Below, in pieces: positions 47,024 through 51,106 of a stretch of 64,000 nucleotides of DNA. Made by a program: the position numbers and the translations under genes. Source of the DNA: an uncultured Spirochaetota bacterium (GTDB lineage Bacteria; Spirochaetota; Spirochaetia; SZUA-6; CAVTHK01). The stretch covers positions 320,001 through 384,000 of the forward strand of contig CAVTHK010000003.1 in the NCBI GenBank assembly GCA_963734495.1, read 5' to 3'. The notes below the pieces were generated by a model. It had not been told where the DNA came from, did no database searches, and saw only the letters and a list, made by a program, of their open reading frames with translations. Position 1 is the first letter of the stretch; every line of letters starts with the position of its first letter.

Positions 47024-47959
47024 ATGACACTCGAAGCCTTTGTGCTCGGAACCAGCGGAATGATGCCGCTGCCGGGCCGCCACCTCACCTCGGTGCTGCT
47101 GCGGCGCGAAGGGCAGCTCTTCCTCTTCGATTGCGGCGAAGGCACGCAGGTCTCGCTGCGCCGCCTGAACCTGCGCTGGAAGAAGATCTCCGTCATCTTC
47201 ATCAGCCATTCCCACGCCGACCACGTGACCGGGCTTCCCGGCATGCTGATGCTGTCCTCGCAGGTCGAGCGCGACGATCCCCTGCTGATCGTGGGCCCGC
47301 CGCGGACGCGGGAGTTCGTCGAGGCCAACCGGCGCATCCTCGACATGTACATCAACTACCCCATCGAGATCGTCGACGTGGACCCGCGCGCTCCTGAGGT
47401 CGTCTACGAGCAGGACGGCTTCCGCGTCCGCTCCCACCCCCTCAGCCACACCAAGCCGTGCGTCGCGTACACGCTCGAGGAGGACAAGCGCCCGGGCGAG
47501 TTCCACCCGGAGCGGGCCCAGGAGCTGGGCGTGCCGCGCGGCCCGCTGTGGTCGAAGCTCCAGGCCGGCGAACCCGTCCCGTCCAGCTCGGGCGCTCTCG
47601 TGAAGCCGGAGCAGGTGATGGGGCAGCCGCGGCCCGGCCGGAAATTCAGCTTCGTCACCGACACGGTCCCCGCCGCCGGGGTCGCGGAGTTCGTGGCGGG
47701 GAGCAACCTGTTCATCTGCGAGGGCATGTTCGAGCAGGAGCTGCTCGAGAGCGCCCGCGAGAAGAAGCACCTGACGGCCCGTCAGGCCGCGGAGATCGCC
47801 CGCGACGGGGGCGTGAAGAGCATGGGGCTCATCCACTACAGCCCCCGCTACGCCAAGCGCGAGCTGGACAAGCTGCTCGCCGAGGCGCAGGAGATCTTTC
47901 CCGCGACCTTCCTCAGCCGCGACGGCCAGAACATCCCGATCCCCTTCGAGGACGAGTAA
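47024..47959 (+). CDS. rnz: Ribonuclease Z
   Basis: LGTSG..P, DCGEGTQ, HSHADH, exosite GP motif and IHYSPRY. Confidence 0.93.
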   Translation: MTLEAFVLGTSGMMPLPGRHLTSVLLRREGQLFLFDCGEGTQVSLRRLNLRWKKISVIFISHSHADHVTGLPGMLMLSSQVERDDPLLIVGPPRTREFVEANRRILDMYINYPIEIVDVDPRAPEVVYEQDGFRVRSHPLSHTKPCVAYTLEEDKRPGEFHPERAQELGVPRGPLWSKLQAGEPVPSSSGALVKPEQVMGQPRPGRKFSFVTDTVPAAGVAEFVAGSNLFICEGMFEQELLESAREKKHLTARQAAEIARDGGVKSMGLIHYSPRYAKRELDKLLAEAQEIFPATFLSRDGQNIPIPFEDE

Positions 47960-48107
47960 GAAACTGAAGGCTGCCGCCGGGGGGAGGCCGCTCCCGACCG
48001 CCGCGGGGAGGGGCTCCTCGGCCGCGCGCGGGAGTCCCGCATGGCGGGTGCCTTCCTTCATCTAATTCTTTATCCTGAAATTGGTTACTAGCAAAATCGG
48101 CTCGAGG

Positions 48108-48137
48108 TTGACGCCGGCCGGTCCGGGGGGGTAGACT
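48108..48137 (+). promoter_or_regulatory. Promoter TTGACG-N18-TAGACT with AT-rich upstream element
   Basis: Hexamers seen directly; spacer contains a G7 run, so true spacing may be 17; AT-rich 48060-48097. Confidence 0.6.
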
Positions 48138-48142
48138 CTCTG

Positions 48143-48310
48143 TGCGATCCGGCCGATCAACCGGCTGGACGCAAGAGACTCCCGCGTAAAGGGGGAGAGG
48201 CAAAAGCAGATGGATCGCAGCGAAGATCCTGGGAGTAGGACCTCCACCTAAGGCGCGGGAGCCGCCTCTCGTCTCCCGTGCCGGTCCCTCCCGACACAGG
48301 AGGCACGGAG
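48143..48310 (+). ncRNA. Candidate cis-regulatory leader RNA (riboswitch-like, family not recognised)
   Basis: Several perfect 7-10 bp complementary segments, mutually exclusive, one occluding the RBS. Confidence 0.5.
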
Positions 48311-48985
48311 ATGAAGAGGCACAAGATCTTTGGGGACCCGTTCATCACGGGCGGGTTCATCACCAGTTTTTTCAGCGGATTCCTGTACCCGGTCTACGTG
48401 ACCCTCATCCTGGCGAAGCTCGACGCCCGCGTCATCGCGCTCGGGTCGATCCTGTCGGGAGGGTTCCCCGTCGTGATCGGGCTCGCGCTCGAGAACCGGC
48501 GGCTGCATGACTGGCTCTACACGGCGCTGCCCGCGATCATGGTGGGCGAGGTGGCGCTCGGGTTCCTCACCGTCTTCGTCGCCCGGGCCGACGTCGCGTC
48601 GTACTACGTCGTCACGATGCTCGTGCTCGGCGTGTTCACCTCCGCCGTGATGTACCTGCTGCAGCGGGTCAAGGAGAAGCGCTACCGCAGGGCGCGCGCC
48701 GCATTCGATCGCCGCTATGCCATGGCGGACGCCCTCGGGTTCCTCGCGGGCTCGGGCCTCAGCATGGTGGGCGTGCCGAAGATCGGCGACCCGCTCATCG
48801 TGGCCGCGGCCTTCGCGCTTCAGACCGCCGTCGTCTACTCGATGCTTCTGAGCGCGCGGAGCAGCCGCAGGACGCCTGCGCGCCGGGCGCTGCGCGCGGC
48901 CGACCGGTCGCGCGTCGGCGGGGTCCGCGTGGCCGAGGACCCGTTTCCATGGCGCCGCCCGATCCTCGCCGGAGTGGCAGCTTGA
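48311..48985 (+). CDS. Uncharacterised membrane protein (~6 TM, half-MFS-like)
   Basis: AGGAGG RBS; alternating hydrophobic segments. Confidence 0.7.
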   Translation: MKRHKIFGDPFITGGFITSFFSGFLYPVYVTLILAKLDARVIALGSILSGGFPVVIGLALENRRLHDWLYTALPAIMVGEVALGFLTVFVARADVASYYVVTMLVLGVFTSAVMYLLQRVKEKRYRRARAAFDRRYAMADALGFLAGSGLSMVGVPKIGDPLIVAAAFALQTAVVYSMLLSARSSRRTPARRALRAADRSRVGGVRVAEDPFPWRRPILAGVAA

Positions 48986-49110
48986 TTCCCTGAAAGAGAT
49001 CTAGATCGGGCGCGGTCCGCCGCGCCCGGACGCTCCGAAGCGGCGCGAAGAACGGCCCGTCGAAAGGTCGACAGGAACGATATTGAAGGAAGGCCGCGGC
49101 CGCCCGTGCC

Positions 49111-50319
49111 TCAGCGGGCGGCCGCGGCTGAGGGGGCCGCAGGCGATGCGGTCGCGCGCCGCAGGGAGGCGGCGAGCAGGCGGATCAGCAGCACCGAAGC
49201 CGCGAGCACGATCGCCGCGACCACGGCGAACATCACGCGCAGGCCGGCCGCGGCCCCGATCACGCCGCCGAGCCAGGGGCCGCCGAACAAGCCGAGCGCG
49301 TACAGCGACTGGTGCATGCCCGCCGCCGTGCTGCGCTCGGCCTGGTCCACGCGACGGAGGGTGAGCCCCGTGAGCGTCGGGTAGCCGAGCCCCGTCGCTG
49401 CCTCGACGAGGGCGCCGGCGACGAACAGCGAAGCGAGCGACGGGGCGACCGCCGCCGTCGCGATGCCCGCGATCAGGACGCCGAAGGCGAGGCTCACGAG
49501 CGTGGCGGGAGGCAGCCTTCGCTCCAGCCACGTGCTCGCCACGTTCCCCGCCGTGTTGGACGCCATGGCGACGGTCACGAGCAGGCTCTTCGCGATGTCG
49601 CTTCCGCCGAAGGACGAGGCAAACAGCGGGATAAAGGTCATCGAGGAGGCCCACTCGCCGAAGACGAGCAGCGTCTGCAGCGCGCTCGGCAGGAGCACTT
49701 CGCGCCTGCGCGCCAGCGCCAGGATCGCGGAGAGCGAGATGCGCCGCGGGGCGCGGCGCTCGATCGGCATGACGAGCACGACCACGATCGCGGCGACGCT
49801 CGCCGCGGCGGCCAGCGCGAAGGCAAGGCTGTAGCCTCCCGCCTCGTTCAGCACTCCCGTGAGGCTCGTGGCCACCATCCGCCCGATCGACCCGGTGAGA
49901 TTCAGCAGGGAGGCGGCGAGGACCGCCCGCTCCGGCGCGAACAGGCCGCTGAAGATCGCCATCAGCGGCACCCACGTCGCCGCGGCGAGCCCGGTAAGGC
50001 TGCGCCCCACCGCGAGCCCGGCGACGGAGCGGCTCGCGCCCATCGCGGCCGCGCCCACCGCGGCCAGGAGAAACCCGCCGACGATGAACGGCTTGCCCCG
50101 GCCCGTGGCGTCCACCGCGATGCCGACAGGAAAGCGCGCCAGGACCTGCCACAGCCCGTACATCGAGAGCACGAGCCCCACGAGGGCGAGATCGCTCGTG
50201 CGCCGGCCGACGTAGGTCGGGAGCGTGGGCACGTACAGGTAGAGCGCGATCCAGTAGAGAACGTTCGCCGCGAGGAACAGGATCACGGTCGGCCTGCGGC
50301 GGGCCTGACCTTCGGACAT
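49111..50319 (-). CDS. MFS transporter
   Basis: About 12 hydrophobic segments, GIAVDATGRGK motif A; promoter TTGACC-N17-TAGCGT 7 nt before the ATG. Confidence 0.88.
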   Translation of the reverse strand: MSEGQARRRPTVILFLAANVLYWIALYLYVPTLPTYVGRRTSDLALVGLVLSMYGLWQVLARFPVGIAVDATGRGKPFIVGGFLLAAVGAAAMGASRSVAGLAVGRSLTGLAAATWVPLMAIFSGLFAPERAVLAASLLNLTGSIGRMVATSLTGVLNEAGGYSLAFALAAAASVAAIVVVLVMPIERRAPRRISLSAILALARRREVLLPSALQTLLVFGEWASSMTFIPLFASSFGGSDIAKSLLVTVAMASNTAGNVASTWLERRLPPATLVSLAFGVLIAGIATAAVAPSLASLFVAGALVEAATGLGYPTLTGLTLRRVDQAERSTAAGMHQSLYALGLFGGPWLGGVIGAAAGLRVMFAVVAAIVLAASVLLIRLLAASLRRATASPAAPSAAAAR

Positions 50320-50377
50320 GGCCCGCACGCTACGCTCGGTCTCGACTTCGGTCAAGGCGCCTGCTATTCTCTCGCGG

Positions 50378-51106
50378 ATGGCAGACCGTTTCGAGGTGCT
50401 CGTGCTCGTTGCCAGGCCCGCCGCCGGGAAGAGCGAAGTCATCGATTACCTGCGCAGGACCCCTGAAAACGAGCGCCTCGCCCGTTTCCACATCGGCCGC
50501 TTCCGCGAGATCGACGACTTCCCGATGCTGTGGGCCTGGTTCGAGGAGGACGGGATCCTCGACGAGATGGCGCTGCCCCGCCTGCACACCGACGCGGACG
50601 GTTACTTCCGGCGCCGGGAGCTCTGGGACCTGCTCGTCCGCCGCATCGTCCTCGACTACCGCAAGCTGCTCGCCGAGGACCCGCGGCTGCACGACCACAC
50701 GACCGCGATCTTCGAGTTTTCCCGCGGGTCCGAGCATGGCGGCTACCGCAGCGCCTTCGCGTCGATCGATCCCGACGTGCTCGCGCGGGCCGCCGTGCTG
50801 TACATCGAGGTCTCGTACGCTGAGTCGCTGCGCAAGAACCGCGCGCGCTTCAACCCGGCAAAAGCGCATAGCATCCTCGAGCACGGCCTTCCCGACGCGA
50901 AGATGGAGCGCCTCTACCGCGACGACGACTGGCGGGAGCTCGCGTCGGGCGACGCCGGCCTGTTGCTGGTGGGAGAGGCGAGCGTCCCGTTCGCCGTGAT
51001 GCTGAACGAGGACGACGTGACGACAGCCCGCGGCGAGCCGCTCGGCCGCCGGCTCGAGGAGGCGCTGGGCCGGCTCTGGGCGCGCCGCGCCAACGTCCCC
51101 GGATGA
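50378..51106 (+). CDS. Uncharacterised small P-loop NTPase/kinase-like protein
   Basis: LVLVARPAAGKSE Walker-A variant, IDDF, IFEFSRG and LRKNRAR lid-like segment. Confidence 0.65.
   Translation: MADRFEVLVLVARPAAGKSEVIDYLRRTPENERLARFHIGRFREIDDFPMLWAWFEEDGILDEMALPRLHTDADGYFRRRELWDLLVRRIVLDYRKLLAEDPRLHDHTTAIFEFSRGSEHGGYRSAFASIDPDVLARAAVLYIEVSYAESLRKNRARFNPAKAHSILEHGLPDAKMERLYRDDDWRELASGDAGLLLVGEASVPFAVMLNEDDVTTARGEPLGRRLEEALGRLWARRANVPG

Follow-up and report, generated by a model that had tools for sequence, protein, structure and literature searches.

In attenuators of the ermC, cat-86 and cmlA type, a short leader ORF is preceded by an RBS of its own, and one of the mutually exclusive hairpins conceals the main RBS; the choice between these hairpins is made by a ribosome held in the leader ORF. 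In drug-dependent leaders the stall comes after a few residues, and an Ala/Ser/Thr-penultimate context belongs to chloramphenicol and linezolid arrest as well as to the cat-86 and cmlA leaders. To our knowledge, almost all work on arrest peptides concerns Proteobacteria and Firmicutes. Translation can also be paused or aborted by N-terminal stretches rich in D, E and P (four of the six residues after Met) together with small residues, and MgtL (MEPDPT...) acts in this way as a Mg2+ sensor, complete translation giving the OFF state and drop-off the ON state, according to two reports (bioRxiv 10.1101/2021.02.02.429294; PMC11282234). Further sources describe Asp-Pro motifs that stall ribosomes without EF-P/YfmR (PMC11381351), as well as D-first tripeptides with P or G, and PG dipeptides, that pause the ribosomes of eIF5A-depleted yeast (PMC5499558). 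The leader analyzed here lies in a 64,000-nt stretch of spirochaete DNA, referred to below as the window, and the coordinates of its features are collected in Table 1.

Table 1. Positions of the leader features and of the downstream gene in the window
Feature	Position	Strand	Remarks
Promoter-like site, sigma-70-like	48108..48137	+	-35 TTGACG 48108-13, 18-nt spacer, -10 TAGACT 48132-37
5'-proximal hairpin, holds the GGACGCAA tract	48137..48178	+	MFE pairs 48137-41:48174-78, 48143-46:48170-73, 48148-55:48162-69
Segment 0, CUCCCGCGU, 5' partner of segment 1 in H01	48179..48187	+	MFE and conserved pairing
uORF Shine-Dalgarno-like tract, GGGGGAGAGG	48191..48200	+	9-12 nt 5' of the uORF ATG
uORF, MDRSEDPGSRTST, 13 codons	48210..48251	+	stop TAA 48249-51; core E-D-P-G-S encoded 48222-48236
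Segment 1, GGCGCGGGAG, directly after the uORF stop	48252..48261	+	pairs with segment 0 (H01) or segment 2 (H12)
Segment 2, anti-SD strand, core CUCCCGUGCC 48273-82	48262..48287	+	pairs with segment 1 (H12) or segment 3 (H23)
Segment 3: main SD AGGAGG 48298-303, spacer, ATG 48311-13, codons 2-4	48298..48320	+	predicted to be sequestered in H23
Putatively regulated gene, 224-aa membrane protein, six predicted TM helices	48311..48985	+	single MFS-lobe-like predicted fold

The leader, its upstream ORF and the downstream gene

The earlier note had described a clear promoter followed by a leader of about 170 nt, and both were recovered. A scan for sigma-70-like promoters gave one site, with 0.2 expected in shuffles, and the transcript probably starts near 48144, which leaves about 167 nt to the main ATG (structured leader ~48144-48310). 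In 57 of the 58 usable homologous loci, TTGnCn-17/18-TAnnnT was the best match 5' of the upstream ORF (uORF), a best-of-scan count that is biased towards finding something. The leader folded far better than its shuffled controls (MFE -97.5 versus -70.2 +/- 4.5 kcal/mol; z = -6.14), none of the 200 shuffles being as good. The sequence of its 5'-proximal hairpin is not conserved and could not be aligned even to the leader of the same genus (L011). By eye, unrelated hairpins occupy the same position in other leaders.

A DNA search of relatives returned only the same-genus leader and weak pieces, so the homologous leaders were reached through the protein. When the single protein was searched against contigs, the same-genus record was retrieved together with two spurious short matches. 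Altogether 65 loci were found, of which 58 were usable, two covered the 3' part of the gene only, and five had just 7-80 nt of upstream DNA. The leader is single-copy in its own genome, and a covariance model of it (R1) matched once per genome in 11 of 61 relatives, always just upstream of the gene; these were the same 11 that carry the gene, and no matches occurred in those of the 61 genomes that lack it. In a phylum-wide sample, the protein was detected in one of 401 genomes, which was the window's own. Among sequencing runs matched to 47950-49000, no RNA run was listed, and the 11 DNA runs had small shares (0.05-0.14). Judged by these searches, gene and leader are confined to one group of environmental spirochaetes, and no prior description of the leader or of the protein family was found in open-access and bioRxiv full texts.

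The uORF, which had been overlooked in the first reading of the sequence, encodes an acidic, proline-containing peptide of 13 residues in the window and 11-16 residues in relatives. It was present in 58/58 homologous loci whose upstream DNA spans about 90 nt or longer, as located by a finder whose motif filter had been picked after the first sequences were seen, the main start being called by an SD-anchored rule. An SD precedes it in every locus, as AGGAG/GGAGG 6-9 nt before the start in loci other than the window. The 58 uORFs comprise 44 distinct nucleotide sequences and 38 distinct peptides, and their six lengths (36-51 nt including the stop) are all multiples of three, i.e., the frame is kept. 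The start is ATG in 56 and GTG in two loci; 57 of the 58 uORFs end in TAG and the window's in TAA. Compared with the window, the same-genus uORF has a GTG start, an R to H replacement, a synonymous TCC to TCG change and TAG in place of TAA.

The peptide core, [DE]-D-P-[GW]-[SG], is conserved across three families of the order, and the tail that follows it varies freely in sequence and length. A small residue precedes the acidic pair in most cases (S 15, T 13, A 3 of 43). At least four D, E or P residues occur among residues 2-7 in 21 of the 38 distinct peptides, the window's included, three occur in 15 and two or fewer in two. Three uORFs have no Pro (DDNSGW, DHQW and DDNG), and the Pro-anchored alignment misplaced L045, the motif of which is really S-P-G. 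Asp at -1 is encoded by GAT (16) or GAC (25), Pro by CCT (34), CCA (5) or CCC (1), and Ser at -3 by both AGC and TCN codons; the entropy of codons -3 to +2 is 0.70, 0.32 and 0.82 at the first, second and third codon positions, respectively. Judged by this substitution pattern, the leader contains a short ORF that is conserved at the amino-acid level with a coding-type signature, and it is probably translated. Since Gly is GGG in 37/38 and Ser(+2) is AGT in 30/30 cases, some RNA-level or codon-level constraint appears to overlap the coding constraint at these two codons. A reading of M-E-H as an N-terminal X-X-His metal-binding site was discarded, the third residue being His in only 26 of 43 peptides and Arg in the window.

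The 224-aa protein encoded downstream had been presented as an unknown membrane protein, which agrees with six predicted TM helices and no Pfam family at E <= 0.01; NCBIfam gave only matches at E 0.004-0.055, far below cut-offs. Its predicted structure (pLDDT 75.8) has six long helices forming one lobe, and many MFS structures contain a six-helix lobe onto which residues 1-187 can be superposed. Foldseek E-values were weak (best 0.06), and the structural neighbours included the ferroportin C-lobe (Z 14.6, rmsd 3.1, 181 aligned residues), the LmrP N-lobe (Z 14.0) and NorA (Z 13.9), Z values near 14 being attainable by chance for helical bundles. All 50 neighbours listed are MFS-type or MFS-like, with Z from 14.6 down to 9.0, and cover every substrate class, and the nearest named ESM Atlas clusters hold short MFS_1 proteins (scores 0.95-0.96). 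By its predicted fold, the protein thus resembles a single MFS lobe and is transporter-like and uncharacterized; MFS transporters possess two six-helix lobes, whereas this protein has one and no Pfam MFS match. The operon context was considered as a clue to function and set aside: a HAD hydrolase upstream and a Glu/Gln-tRNA synthetase downstream are found in one family-level group only, and the window and family f6 have a different arrangement.

Mutually exclusive helices of the leader

Three helices, H01 (48179-87:48253-61), H12 (48252-61:48273-82) and H23 (48264-87:48299-48320), compete for the same segments and are mutually exclusive. As a local hairpin H12 amounts to -20.8 kcal/mol, and H23 to -32.8 kcal/mol. 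The core pairings of all three had been proposed by the earlier note, and each was borne out in 52 distinct leaders by comparison with controls in which the partner was slid. For H01, seen by the note as CTCCCGCG (48179-86) with CGCGGGAG (48254-61) and present in the MFE structure, 69% of cells pair versus 35-50% slid; for H12, its 10-bp alternative of segment 1 with CTCCCGTGCC (48273-82), the values are 90% versus 31-64%; and for H23, in which CTCCCGTGCC pairs with GGCACGGAG (48302-10) over the RBS, 87% versus 51-66%, the MFE helix of the window being longer and covering the AUG. The slid-partner controls were thus exceeded for H01, H12 and H23, while shuffle controls overstate significance because the leader sequences are related. 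Covariation was found as well: column 97 covaries with column 151 (UG 27, CG 14, UA 6) and with column 29 (AU 16, GC 12, GU 5), and certain columns vary in concert with each of their two alternative partners. Two further pairings of the note did not hold up. TGCGATCC (48143-50) and GGATCGCA (48212-19), the latter being uORF codons 1-3, are complementary, but 48143-55 pairs locally in the MFE 5' hairpin, and no partner exists in L011; as for GAGAGGC (48195-201) with GCCTCTC (48264-70), the MFE structure pairs GCCUCU with AGAGGC (48315-20) instead, and the proposed pairing is not conserved. The two-state translational expression platform suggested by the note is nevertheless supported, as the three exclusive helices are conserved and the 3' state hides the main SD/AUG. 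RNAalifold alone gave a weak consensus (-5.4 kcal/mol, nine pairs, six of them the H23 core) with no conserved multi-stem junction or internal loop in the leaders. An intrinsic terminator was also considered and rejected, there being no terminator-like site on the + strand and no U-tract after H12 or H23.

The uORF stop falls 4 nt short of the H12 5' arm in 19 of 52 leaders (-4 relative to the first H12 pair) and 3 nt within it in 33 (+3), and the Pro codon lies 18-25 nt upstream of segment 1. Four loci (L020, L061, L068 and L063) seem to begin their transcript at the uORF and thus to lack segment 0, so H01 is not universal. When the transcript was truncated behind segment 2, H12 was the preferred helix of segment 1 in 37/52 leaders (1.00 in the window); in the window, the first 5 nt of segment 0 then pair with GGGAG (48193-97) of the uORF SD. 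At full length, segment 2 preferred H23 in 42/52 leaders (window: H01 0.98, H23 0.87). With a ribosome modelled at the uORF stop, H23 won in 52/52 leaders, and with one modelled at P-G, H12 beat H23 in only 24/52; in the window itself H23 won in every modelled state (0.87). Since H12 prevails at P-G in only 24/52 leaders and never in the window, the ON state proposed below rests on a kinetic argument. The equilibrium accessibility of the SD changed little and did not discriminate between the states, the mean unpaired SD/AUG fraction being 0.24 for the free leader, 0.29 when a ribosome occupied P-G and 0.20 when one occupied the stop.

A putative attenuator and its alternatives

The comparison of relatives established a uORF with coding-type conservation, three exclusive helices, their geometry and an exclusive link to the gene. 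The reading that we prefer, with a probability of roughly 0.6, takes the leader for a translational attenuator that depends on a leader peptide (uORF). On the transcript, segment 0, the RBS, the 13-codon uORF, segment 1, segment 2 (anti-SD) and segment 3 (main SD/AUG) follow one another. In the ON state, H12 would form, segment 1 would hold the anti-SD and the main SD would be free, while in the OFF state (H01 plus H23) segment 0 would hold segment 1, and the anti-SD would hold the main SD and start codon. During transcription H12 would arise first, and the more stable H01 plus H23 would be reached in the end. Ribosomes arriving at the uORF stop would melt and occupy segment 1, upon which the anti-SD would pass to the main SD (OFF). 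If, as the conserved motif leads us to infer, ribosomes pause or abort at the N-terminal [DE]-D-P-[GW], they would halt 15-22 nt short of segment 1 and leave H12 intact; a paused ribosome would also hinder segment 0 from reaching segment 1, and the main gene would be translated (ON). The output of a switch with this presumed direction would report the difficulty of translating the motif, the candidate signals being ribosome stability (Mg2+, polyamines), EF-P/ABCF activity or another inducer.

The comparison of relatives turned a convincing 'orphan riboswitch' candidate into what is best explained by a uORF-driven switch. On the riboswitch view, the leader RNA would bind a small molecule that shifts the H12/H23 balance, and the short ORF would be incidental. 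The strong structure of the leader (z = -6.1) and its conserved alternative helices, including one that sequesters the SD, speak for this view, and the invariant GGG and AGT third positions hint at RNA-level constraint too. What does not fit are the conserved letters, since all conserved blocks are explained by the uORF (SD, start, codons and stop), the anti-SD and the SD of the main gene, and the reading frame persists through six lengths with wobble and Ser-family codon changes. No conserved aptamer distinct from the expression platform was seen: the stretch between promoter and H01 is a hairpin, the sequence ahead of segment 0 shows no conservation inside the genus, and the leaders have no conserved multi-stem junction or internal loop. 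The leader had been placed outside the known families, and indeed no Rfam family matched at its gathering score across the whole 64,000-nt window; at E <= 10, region 47940-48400 gave seven chance-level matches to unrelated families (E 1.4-7.7, 10.5-21 bits versus gathering scores of 37.8-60). The resemblance to c-di-GMP-I was not confirmed, this family being absent at gathering score in the window and even at E <= 10 in 47940-48400. Because the conserved blocks are translation signals plus the uORF and the putative aptamer stretch is unconserved, the sensor is more probably a ribosome translating the uORF than a metabolite-binding RNA, and we consider a riboswitch very unlikely.

Two other explanations retain a translated uORF. 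An attenuator that is induced by antibiotics and controls an efflux or resistance gene (ermC / cat-86 / cmlA type), in which a ribosome-targeting drug would stall translation of the leader peptide and so open the main RBS, would have the same architecture; arrest would come 5-9 residues into the peptide, as early as in drug-dependent leaders, S/T/A before the acidic pair recalls the Ala/Ser/Thr-penultimate context, and two drug exporters, LmrP (Z 14.0) and NorA (Z 13.9), are among the structural neighbours. Yet the best-conserved D-P-G-S/G lies beyond that context, the protein is in no known resistance family, its MFS neighbours span all substrate classes, and the gene, chromosomal and restricted to its lineage, showed no mobile context, all of which makes this explanation improbable. 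It is also unlikely that the peptide has no stalling role, with the helices gauging general uORF translation, ribosome availability or temperature, or the 11-16-residue peptide being functional itself. The equilibrium predictions, which barely shift with a ribosome at the motif, the three uORFs without Pro and the possibility that the helices alone make a kinetic switch speak for this view; against it, [DE]-D-P-[GW]-[SG] is conserved over three families alongside synonymous change, and the distance from motif to segment 1 is held at 18-25 nt in spite of a tail free in sequence and length.

Returning to the uORF-dependent attenuator, we tentatively consider a further-reaching form of it, which is possible rather than probable: [DE]-D-P-[GW]-[SG] may be a new, very short nascent-peptide sensor of ribosome stability (Mg2+, polyamines), EF-P/ABCF capacity or a tunnel-bound small molecule, driving a half-size MFS-type transporter via a four-segment kinetic RNA switch, so that an mgtL-like principle with purely translational output would have evolved independently in spirochaetes. 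If ribosomes are paused or destabilized by the motif, its 5-9 residues would make up a compact natural sensor outside Proteobacteria and Firmicutes. Pausing would also offer a clue to the function of a lineage-restricted family of single-lobe MFS-like proteins, as the transporter would then probably relieve whatever makes D-D-P-G hard to translate. In the proposed four-segment layout, finishing the uORF would actively return the switch from its kinetic ON state to OFF and lock it there, which would make the leader a clean system for co-transcriptional folding coupled to translation.

Relation to described leader-peptide systems

With the ermC/cat attenuators the leader shares a short conserved leader ORF with its own RBS (58/58 loci, SD 6-12 nt upstream, frame kept) and exclusive helices in positions that would let a ribosome translating this ORF select between them (stop at -4/+3 of H12; H23 in 52/52 with a ribosome at the stop). 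The stalled ribosome of ermC/cat sits on the switching segment, whereas here it would sit just upstream. Moreover, the segment beside the uORF is here an anti-anti-SD, so that finishing the uORF would repress, and an extra upstream segment (segment 0) would lock the OFF state, both unlike ermC/cat; no resistance family is involved here.

Another parallel is offered by mgtL-mgtA of E. coli and Salmonella, which likewise has a very short leader ORF with acidic and proline-rich first residues and follows the same logic as proposed here, complete translation turning the transporter OFF and pausing or drop-off turning it ON via alternative RNA pairing. The window's peptide has the four D/E/P in the six residues after Met that are characteristic of such leaders, as do 21 of the 38 distinct peptides in all, the others having fewer. 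The motifs differ, EPDP in MgtL and [DE]-D-P-[GW]-[SG] here, and so do the outputs, Rho-dependent termination for mgtL versus the putative sequestration of SD/AUG. Unlike in mgtL, no Mg2+-riboswitch part was recognized by Rfam in the window's leader. While mgtL regulates a P-type ATPase (MgtA), the protein here is a predicted six-TM, MFS-lobe-like one and the hosts are spirochaetes; pausing and drop-off have been reported for mgtL, whereas here they are putative. Finally, the D-D-P-G core combines features of the EF-P/eIF5A/ABCF-dependent motifs (Asp-Pro, D-x-P/G and P-G) that are reported to slow peptide-bond formation (PMC11381351; PMC5499558). The hard-to-translate motifs described there lie inside ordinary proteins or synthetic repeats, e.g., (DP)5, whereas the spirochaete leader peptide has a single D-P-G, a putative pause site.

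The upstream open reading frame

Lining up the upstream regions of homologous loci revealed, in the leader of the gene encoding protein P0001, a short upstream ORF (uORF; in the window it encodes MDRSEDPGSRTST) that the earlier note had overlooked. The loci numbered 65 in total; L072 and L074, where nothing but the gene's 3' part is present, were dropped beforehand. A uORF with its own Shine-Dalgarno (SD) sequence was found in all 58 loci having enough upstream DNA, by a finder whose permissive motif filter was written after the first sequences had been seen, so that detection and motif are not independent. Five loci with just 7-80 nt upstream (L031, L059, L066, L041, and L069) lie outside this count, and despite the short upstream DNA, the 3' part of the uORF is visible in the last two. 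Across the 58 loci, the uORF occurs in 44 different nucleotide sequences, and the 38 different peptides are 11-16 residues long. The uORFs start with ATG (56 loci) or GTG (2 loci) and end with TAG in all but the window, which alone has TAA (57 versus 1), and the reading frame is preserved across six different lengths. The peptides share the core [DE]-D-P-[GW]-[SG], usually led in by M-[EQD]-[HQ]-[ST]. Among residues 2-7, at least four, the published threshold for translation-aborting N-termini, are D, E, or P in 21 of the 38 peptides (the window's included), three in 15, and fewer in 2. Asp(-1) is encoded by GAT (16) or GAC (25); position -2, acidic in every case, by GAA (22), GAC (16), or GAT (5); Pro by CCT (34), CCA (5), or CCC (1); and Ser(-3) by both the AGC and TCN codon families, the entropy over codons -3 to +2 being 0.70, 0.32, and 0.82 at the three codon positions. 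The same-genus uORF (locus L011) differs from that of the window by a GTG start, an R to H replacement, a synonymous TCC to TCG change, and TAG in place of TAA. Against a purely coding constraint stand the use of GGG for Gly (37 of 38) and of AGT for Ser(+2) (30 of 30), as well as the absence of Pro from three uORFs. At most loci, the TAG stop itself lies within the helices described below (GCAUAGG in H12/H01), so the choice of stop codon looks structurally constrained; termination at TAG would depend on RF1.

Features of the window and support for the three helices (cells paired in 52 distinct leaders, with slid-partner controls)
Feature	Position	Strand	Basis
RNase Z-like metallo-beta-lactamase-fold protein, upstream neighbour	47024-47959	+	Lactamase_B_2, E 1e-15
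Sigma-70-like promoter	TTGACG 48108-13, 18 nt, TAGACT 48132-37	+	Promoter scan
H01, segments 0:1	48179-87:48253-61		69% paired, slid 35-50%
uORF	ATG 48210 to TAA 48249-51	+	Own Shine-Dalgarno; comparison of leaders
H12, segments 1:2	48252-61:48273-82		90% paired, slid 31-64%
H23, segments 2:3, main SD GGAGGTGG	48264-87:48299-48320		87% paired, slid 51-66%
Main ORF (P0001), 224 codons	48311-48985	+	Directly after leader
Full-length MFS_1 transporter, convergent downstream neighbour	49114-50442	-	MFS_1, E 1e-35
262-aa protein	50318-51103	+	No Pfam family

The leader and its competing helices

The promoter noted earlier ahead of a leader of ~170 nt is the sole sigma-70-like site in 47800-49300 (0.2 expected), and the leader measures ~167 nt. 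It is single-copy in its own genome and, in the comparison with shuffled controls that had been proposed, folds far better than its dinucleotide shuffles (MFE -97.5 versus -70.2 ± 4.5 kcal/mol; z = -6.14; 0 of 200 as good). No Rfam family reached the gathering score in the whole window, and a permissive scan of 47940-48400 gave seven chance-level matches, all to unrelated families; the suggested likeness to c-di-GMP-I is thus not borne out. At the 5' end of the transcript, ahead of segment 0, a GC-rich hairpin is predicted at 48137-48178; by eye, most leaders seem to open in this way, with unrelated sequences, and it could be a generic 5'-end stabiliser.

In transcript order, the leader comprises segment 0, the uORF with its SD, segment 1, segment 2 (the anti-SD), and segment 3 (the main SD and AUG); formation of H12 excludes both H01 and H23. 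The helices were assessed in a MAFFT alignment (A2) that was not fitted to any structure; the leaders are kin, so shuffle controls inflate significance and slid-partner controls are fairer. All three helices exceeded the slid controls (see table), the value for H01 being obtained despite misalignment of the window and L011 in that region. The corresponding pairings of the earlier note (48179-86 with 48254-61, 48252-61 with 48273-82, and 48273-82 with 48302-10 over the RBS) therefore hold in the homologues, whereas two others, TGCGATCC/GGATCGCA and GAGAGGC/GCCTCTC, are complementary in the window, yet lie outside the MFE structure and are not conserved. Some positions in the homologous leaders covary with both of their alternative partners; alignment column 97 does so with 151 (UG 27, CG 14, UA 6) and with 29 (AU 16, GC 12, GU 5). 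In the window, the local H12 hairpin amounts to -20.8 kcal/mol and H23 to -32.8 kcal/mol, the latter running from within the SD through the spacer and the AUG to codons 2-4. RNAalifold alone yielded a consensus of just -5.4 kcal/mol with 9 pairs, of which 6 belong to the H23 core; such a weak result is expected for competing helices and is no independent support for H12 or H01.

The uORF stop lies 4 nt before the first pair of H12 in 19 of 52 leaders and 3 nt inside it in 33, which means that a ribosome terminating there has to cover segment 1. From the Pro codon it is 18 to 27 nt to the stop, with a variable tail, and 18-25 nt to segment 1 (L045 was mis-anchored by the script); judged from these distances, a ribosome held with Pro or Gly in its P site would extend almost, but not quite, to segment 1. 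Folding was modelled with ViennaRNA at equilibrium and is merely a guide. The mean unpaired fraction from SD to AUG was 0.24 in free leaders; a ribosome placed at P-G raised it to 0.29 and one at the stop lowered it to 0.20, a small effect. With the ribosome at the stop, the anti-SD core paired toward the SD (H23) in 52/52 leaders; H12 prevailed over H23 in 14/52 when free and in 24/52 with a ribosome at P-G, and H23 won in every ribosome state modelled for the window. Transcripts from the inferred start cut after segment 2 preferred H12 over H01 in 37/52 cases (window 1.00), and full-length leaders H23 over H12 in 42/52 (in the window, segment 1 pairs with segment 0 at 0.98 and segment 2 with segment 3 at 0.87). 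The models thus predict a kinetic switch in which H12 (ON) forms first and H01 plus H23 (OFF) is the ground state. In the cut transcript of the window, the five 5'-terminal bases of segment 0, CUCCC, are predicted to pair with the uORF SD (GGGAG, 48193-97; pairing region 48179-48197), and the same-genus leader reads CCCCC...GGGGG at these sites; because of this pairing, the ON state may also damp further uORF initiation in this genus. In L020, L061, L068, and L063, the best promoter-like -10 ends just 6-7 nt before the uORF ATG, so placed that the uORF would be leaderless and segment 0, with H01, outside the transcript; the switch at these loci would be a naturally occurring variant with three segments.

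The downstream protein and its distribution

P0001, described earlier as an unknown membrane protein, belongs to no Pfam family and matches NCBIfam far below threshold only. Its AlphaFold2 model (70-sequence alignment; mean pLDDT 75.8) has six long helices and a disordered C-terminal stretch of 35 residues. Foldseek against the PDB gave a weak best E of 0.06, and among the chains listed nearly all were MFS transporters. With VIA-align, the best 50 of 48,161 chains were all MFS or MFS-like, matching with one lobe each on residues 1-187, led by the ferroportin C-lobe (Z 14.6; rmsd 3.1 Å, 181 aligned), the LmrP N-lobe (14.0), and NorA (13.9) and falling to 9.0 at rank 50; by the tool's own warning, chance can bring helical bundles to Z 14, and the uniform list is the stronger argument. 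As a lead only, the nearest named ESM Atlas clusters (score 0.95-0.96) consist of short proteins, with MFS_1 present in 55-68% of the members. We read P0001 as a single-lobe, MFS-like membrane protein, probably a transporter. In six loci (L029, L034, L047, L055, L060, and L067), MKKTPR at the start of the main ORF is followed by 9-30 extra N-terminal residues, with one to three copies of an N-V-T-G-Y-R-D-R-A-like motif ahead of the conserved F-L-D...SGF start of the family.

The gene is present in 11 of 61 related genomes, the window's own included (family-level groups f1, 1/1; f2, 7/13; f6, 2/13; f3, f4, f5, f7, and f8 together, 0/33), in 1 of 401 genomes of a phylum-wide sample, again the window's own, and at 54 metagenome loci. 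The 80 protein matches among 5.8 billion are all unnamed or 'hypothetical', with an automatic KefB label on a few; the few named ones come from Spirochaetia MAGs. A covariance model, R1 (alignment A4; 50 of the 52 distinct leaders, the leaderless-type L020 and L061 being omitted), matched once per genome in the same 11 of 61 genomes, each time directly upstream of the gene; the search found no leader away from the gene and none in genomes lacking it. Since the leader always lies upstream of the gene and the other neighbours differ between families, leader plus gene is the conserved unit. In one family-level group (L027, L029, L032, L037, L051, and others), the gene is preceded by a HAD-type hydrolase, whose cluster occurs in 31 loci, and followed on the same strand by a class-I Glu/Gln-tRNA synthetase, whose cluster occurs in 25; in L029, a PAS-domain ORF separates the gene from the synthetase; this synteny is absent from the window and from f6, where an NMT1_3 binding protein lies downstream.

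Proposed mechanism and comparison with known systems

The comparison of leaders establishes their parts, their conservation, and their geometry. The earlier note had read the element as an orphan (metabolite) riboswitch; with a conserved uORF in a kept frame and three exclusive helices beside it, we prefer a uORF-coupled, SD-sequestering switch (probability about 0.8). We propose that the uORF is translated and that a ribosome reaching its stop would unwind H12 and occupy segment 1, leaving the anti-SD to capture the main SD and AUG through H23; after release, segment 0 would lock segment 1 in H01 (OFF). Pausing or abortion at the N-terminal acidic-proline motif would leave H12 intact (ON), and a ribosome held there would hinder H01 for as long as it is present. 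We lean slightly toward this direction, with completion as OFF and pausing as ON. That the trigger is ribosome destabilisation or an EF-P/ABCF-type difficulty at the motif is a tentative suggestion, rather unlikely to be correct as it stands. N-terminal stretches rich in D/E/P and containing small residues make ribosomes pause or abort early, when the nascent chain is still short; Escherichia coli MgtL (MEPDPT...) uses this as a Mg2+ sensor, in which complete translation means OFF and drop-off ON, and EttA modulates MgtL-type abortion (bioRxiv 10.1101/2021.02.02.429294; PMC11282234). Bacillus subtilis ribosomes without EF-P stall at Asp-Pro, a stall that YfmR/Uup relieves (PMC11381351), and pause sites in eIF5A-depleted yeast include tripeptides that have D in first place and P/G behind it, as well as PG dipeptides (PMC5499558).

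The regulated protein family is uncharacterised, and a search of open-access and bioRxiv literature, at abstract level, found no earlier account of it or of the leader. To our knowledge, the [DE]-D-P-[GW]-[SG] motif resembles no known arrest peptide. The element would work like mgtL and the ermC/cat attenuators but is a member of neither. Its output would be SD sequestration, in contrast to the Rho-dependent termination of mgtL. The segment adjoining the uORF is here the anti-anti-SD, so that finishing the uORF would repress, and a fourth segment would lock the OFF state.
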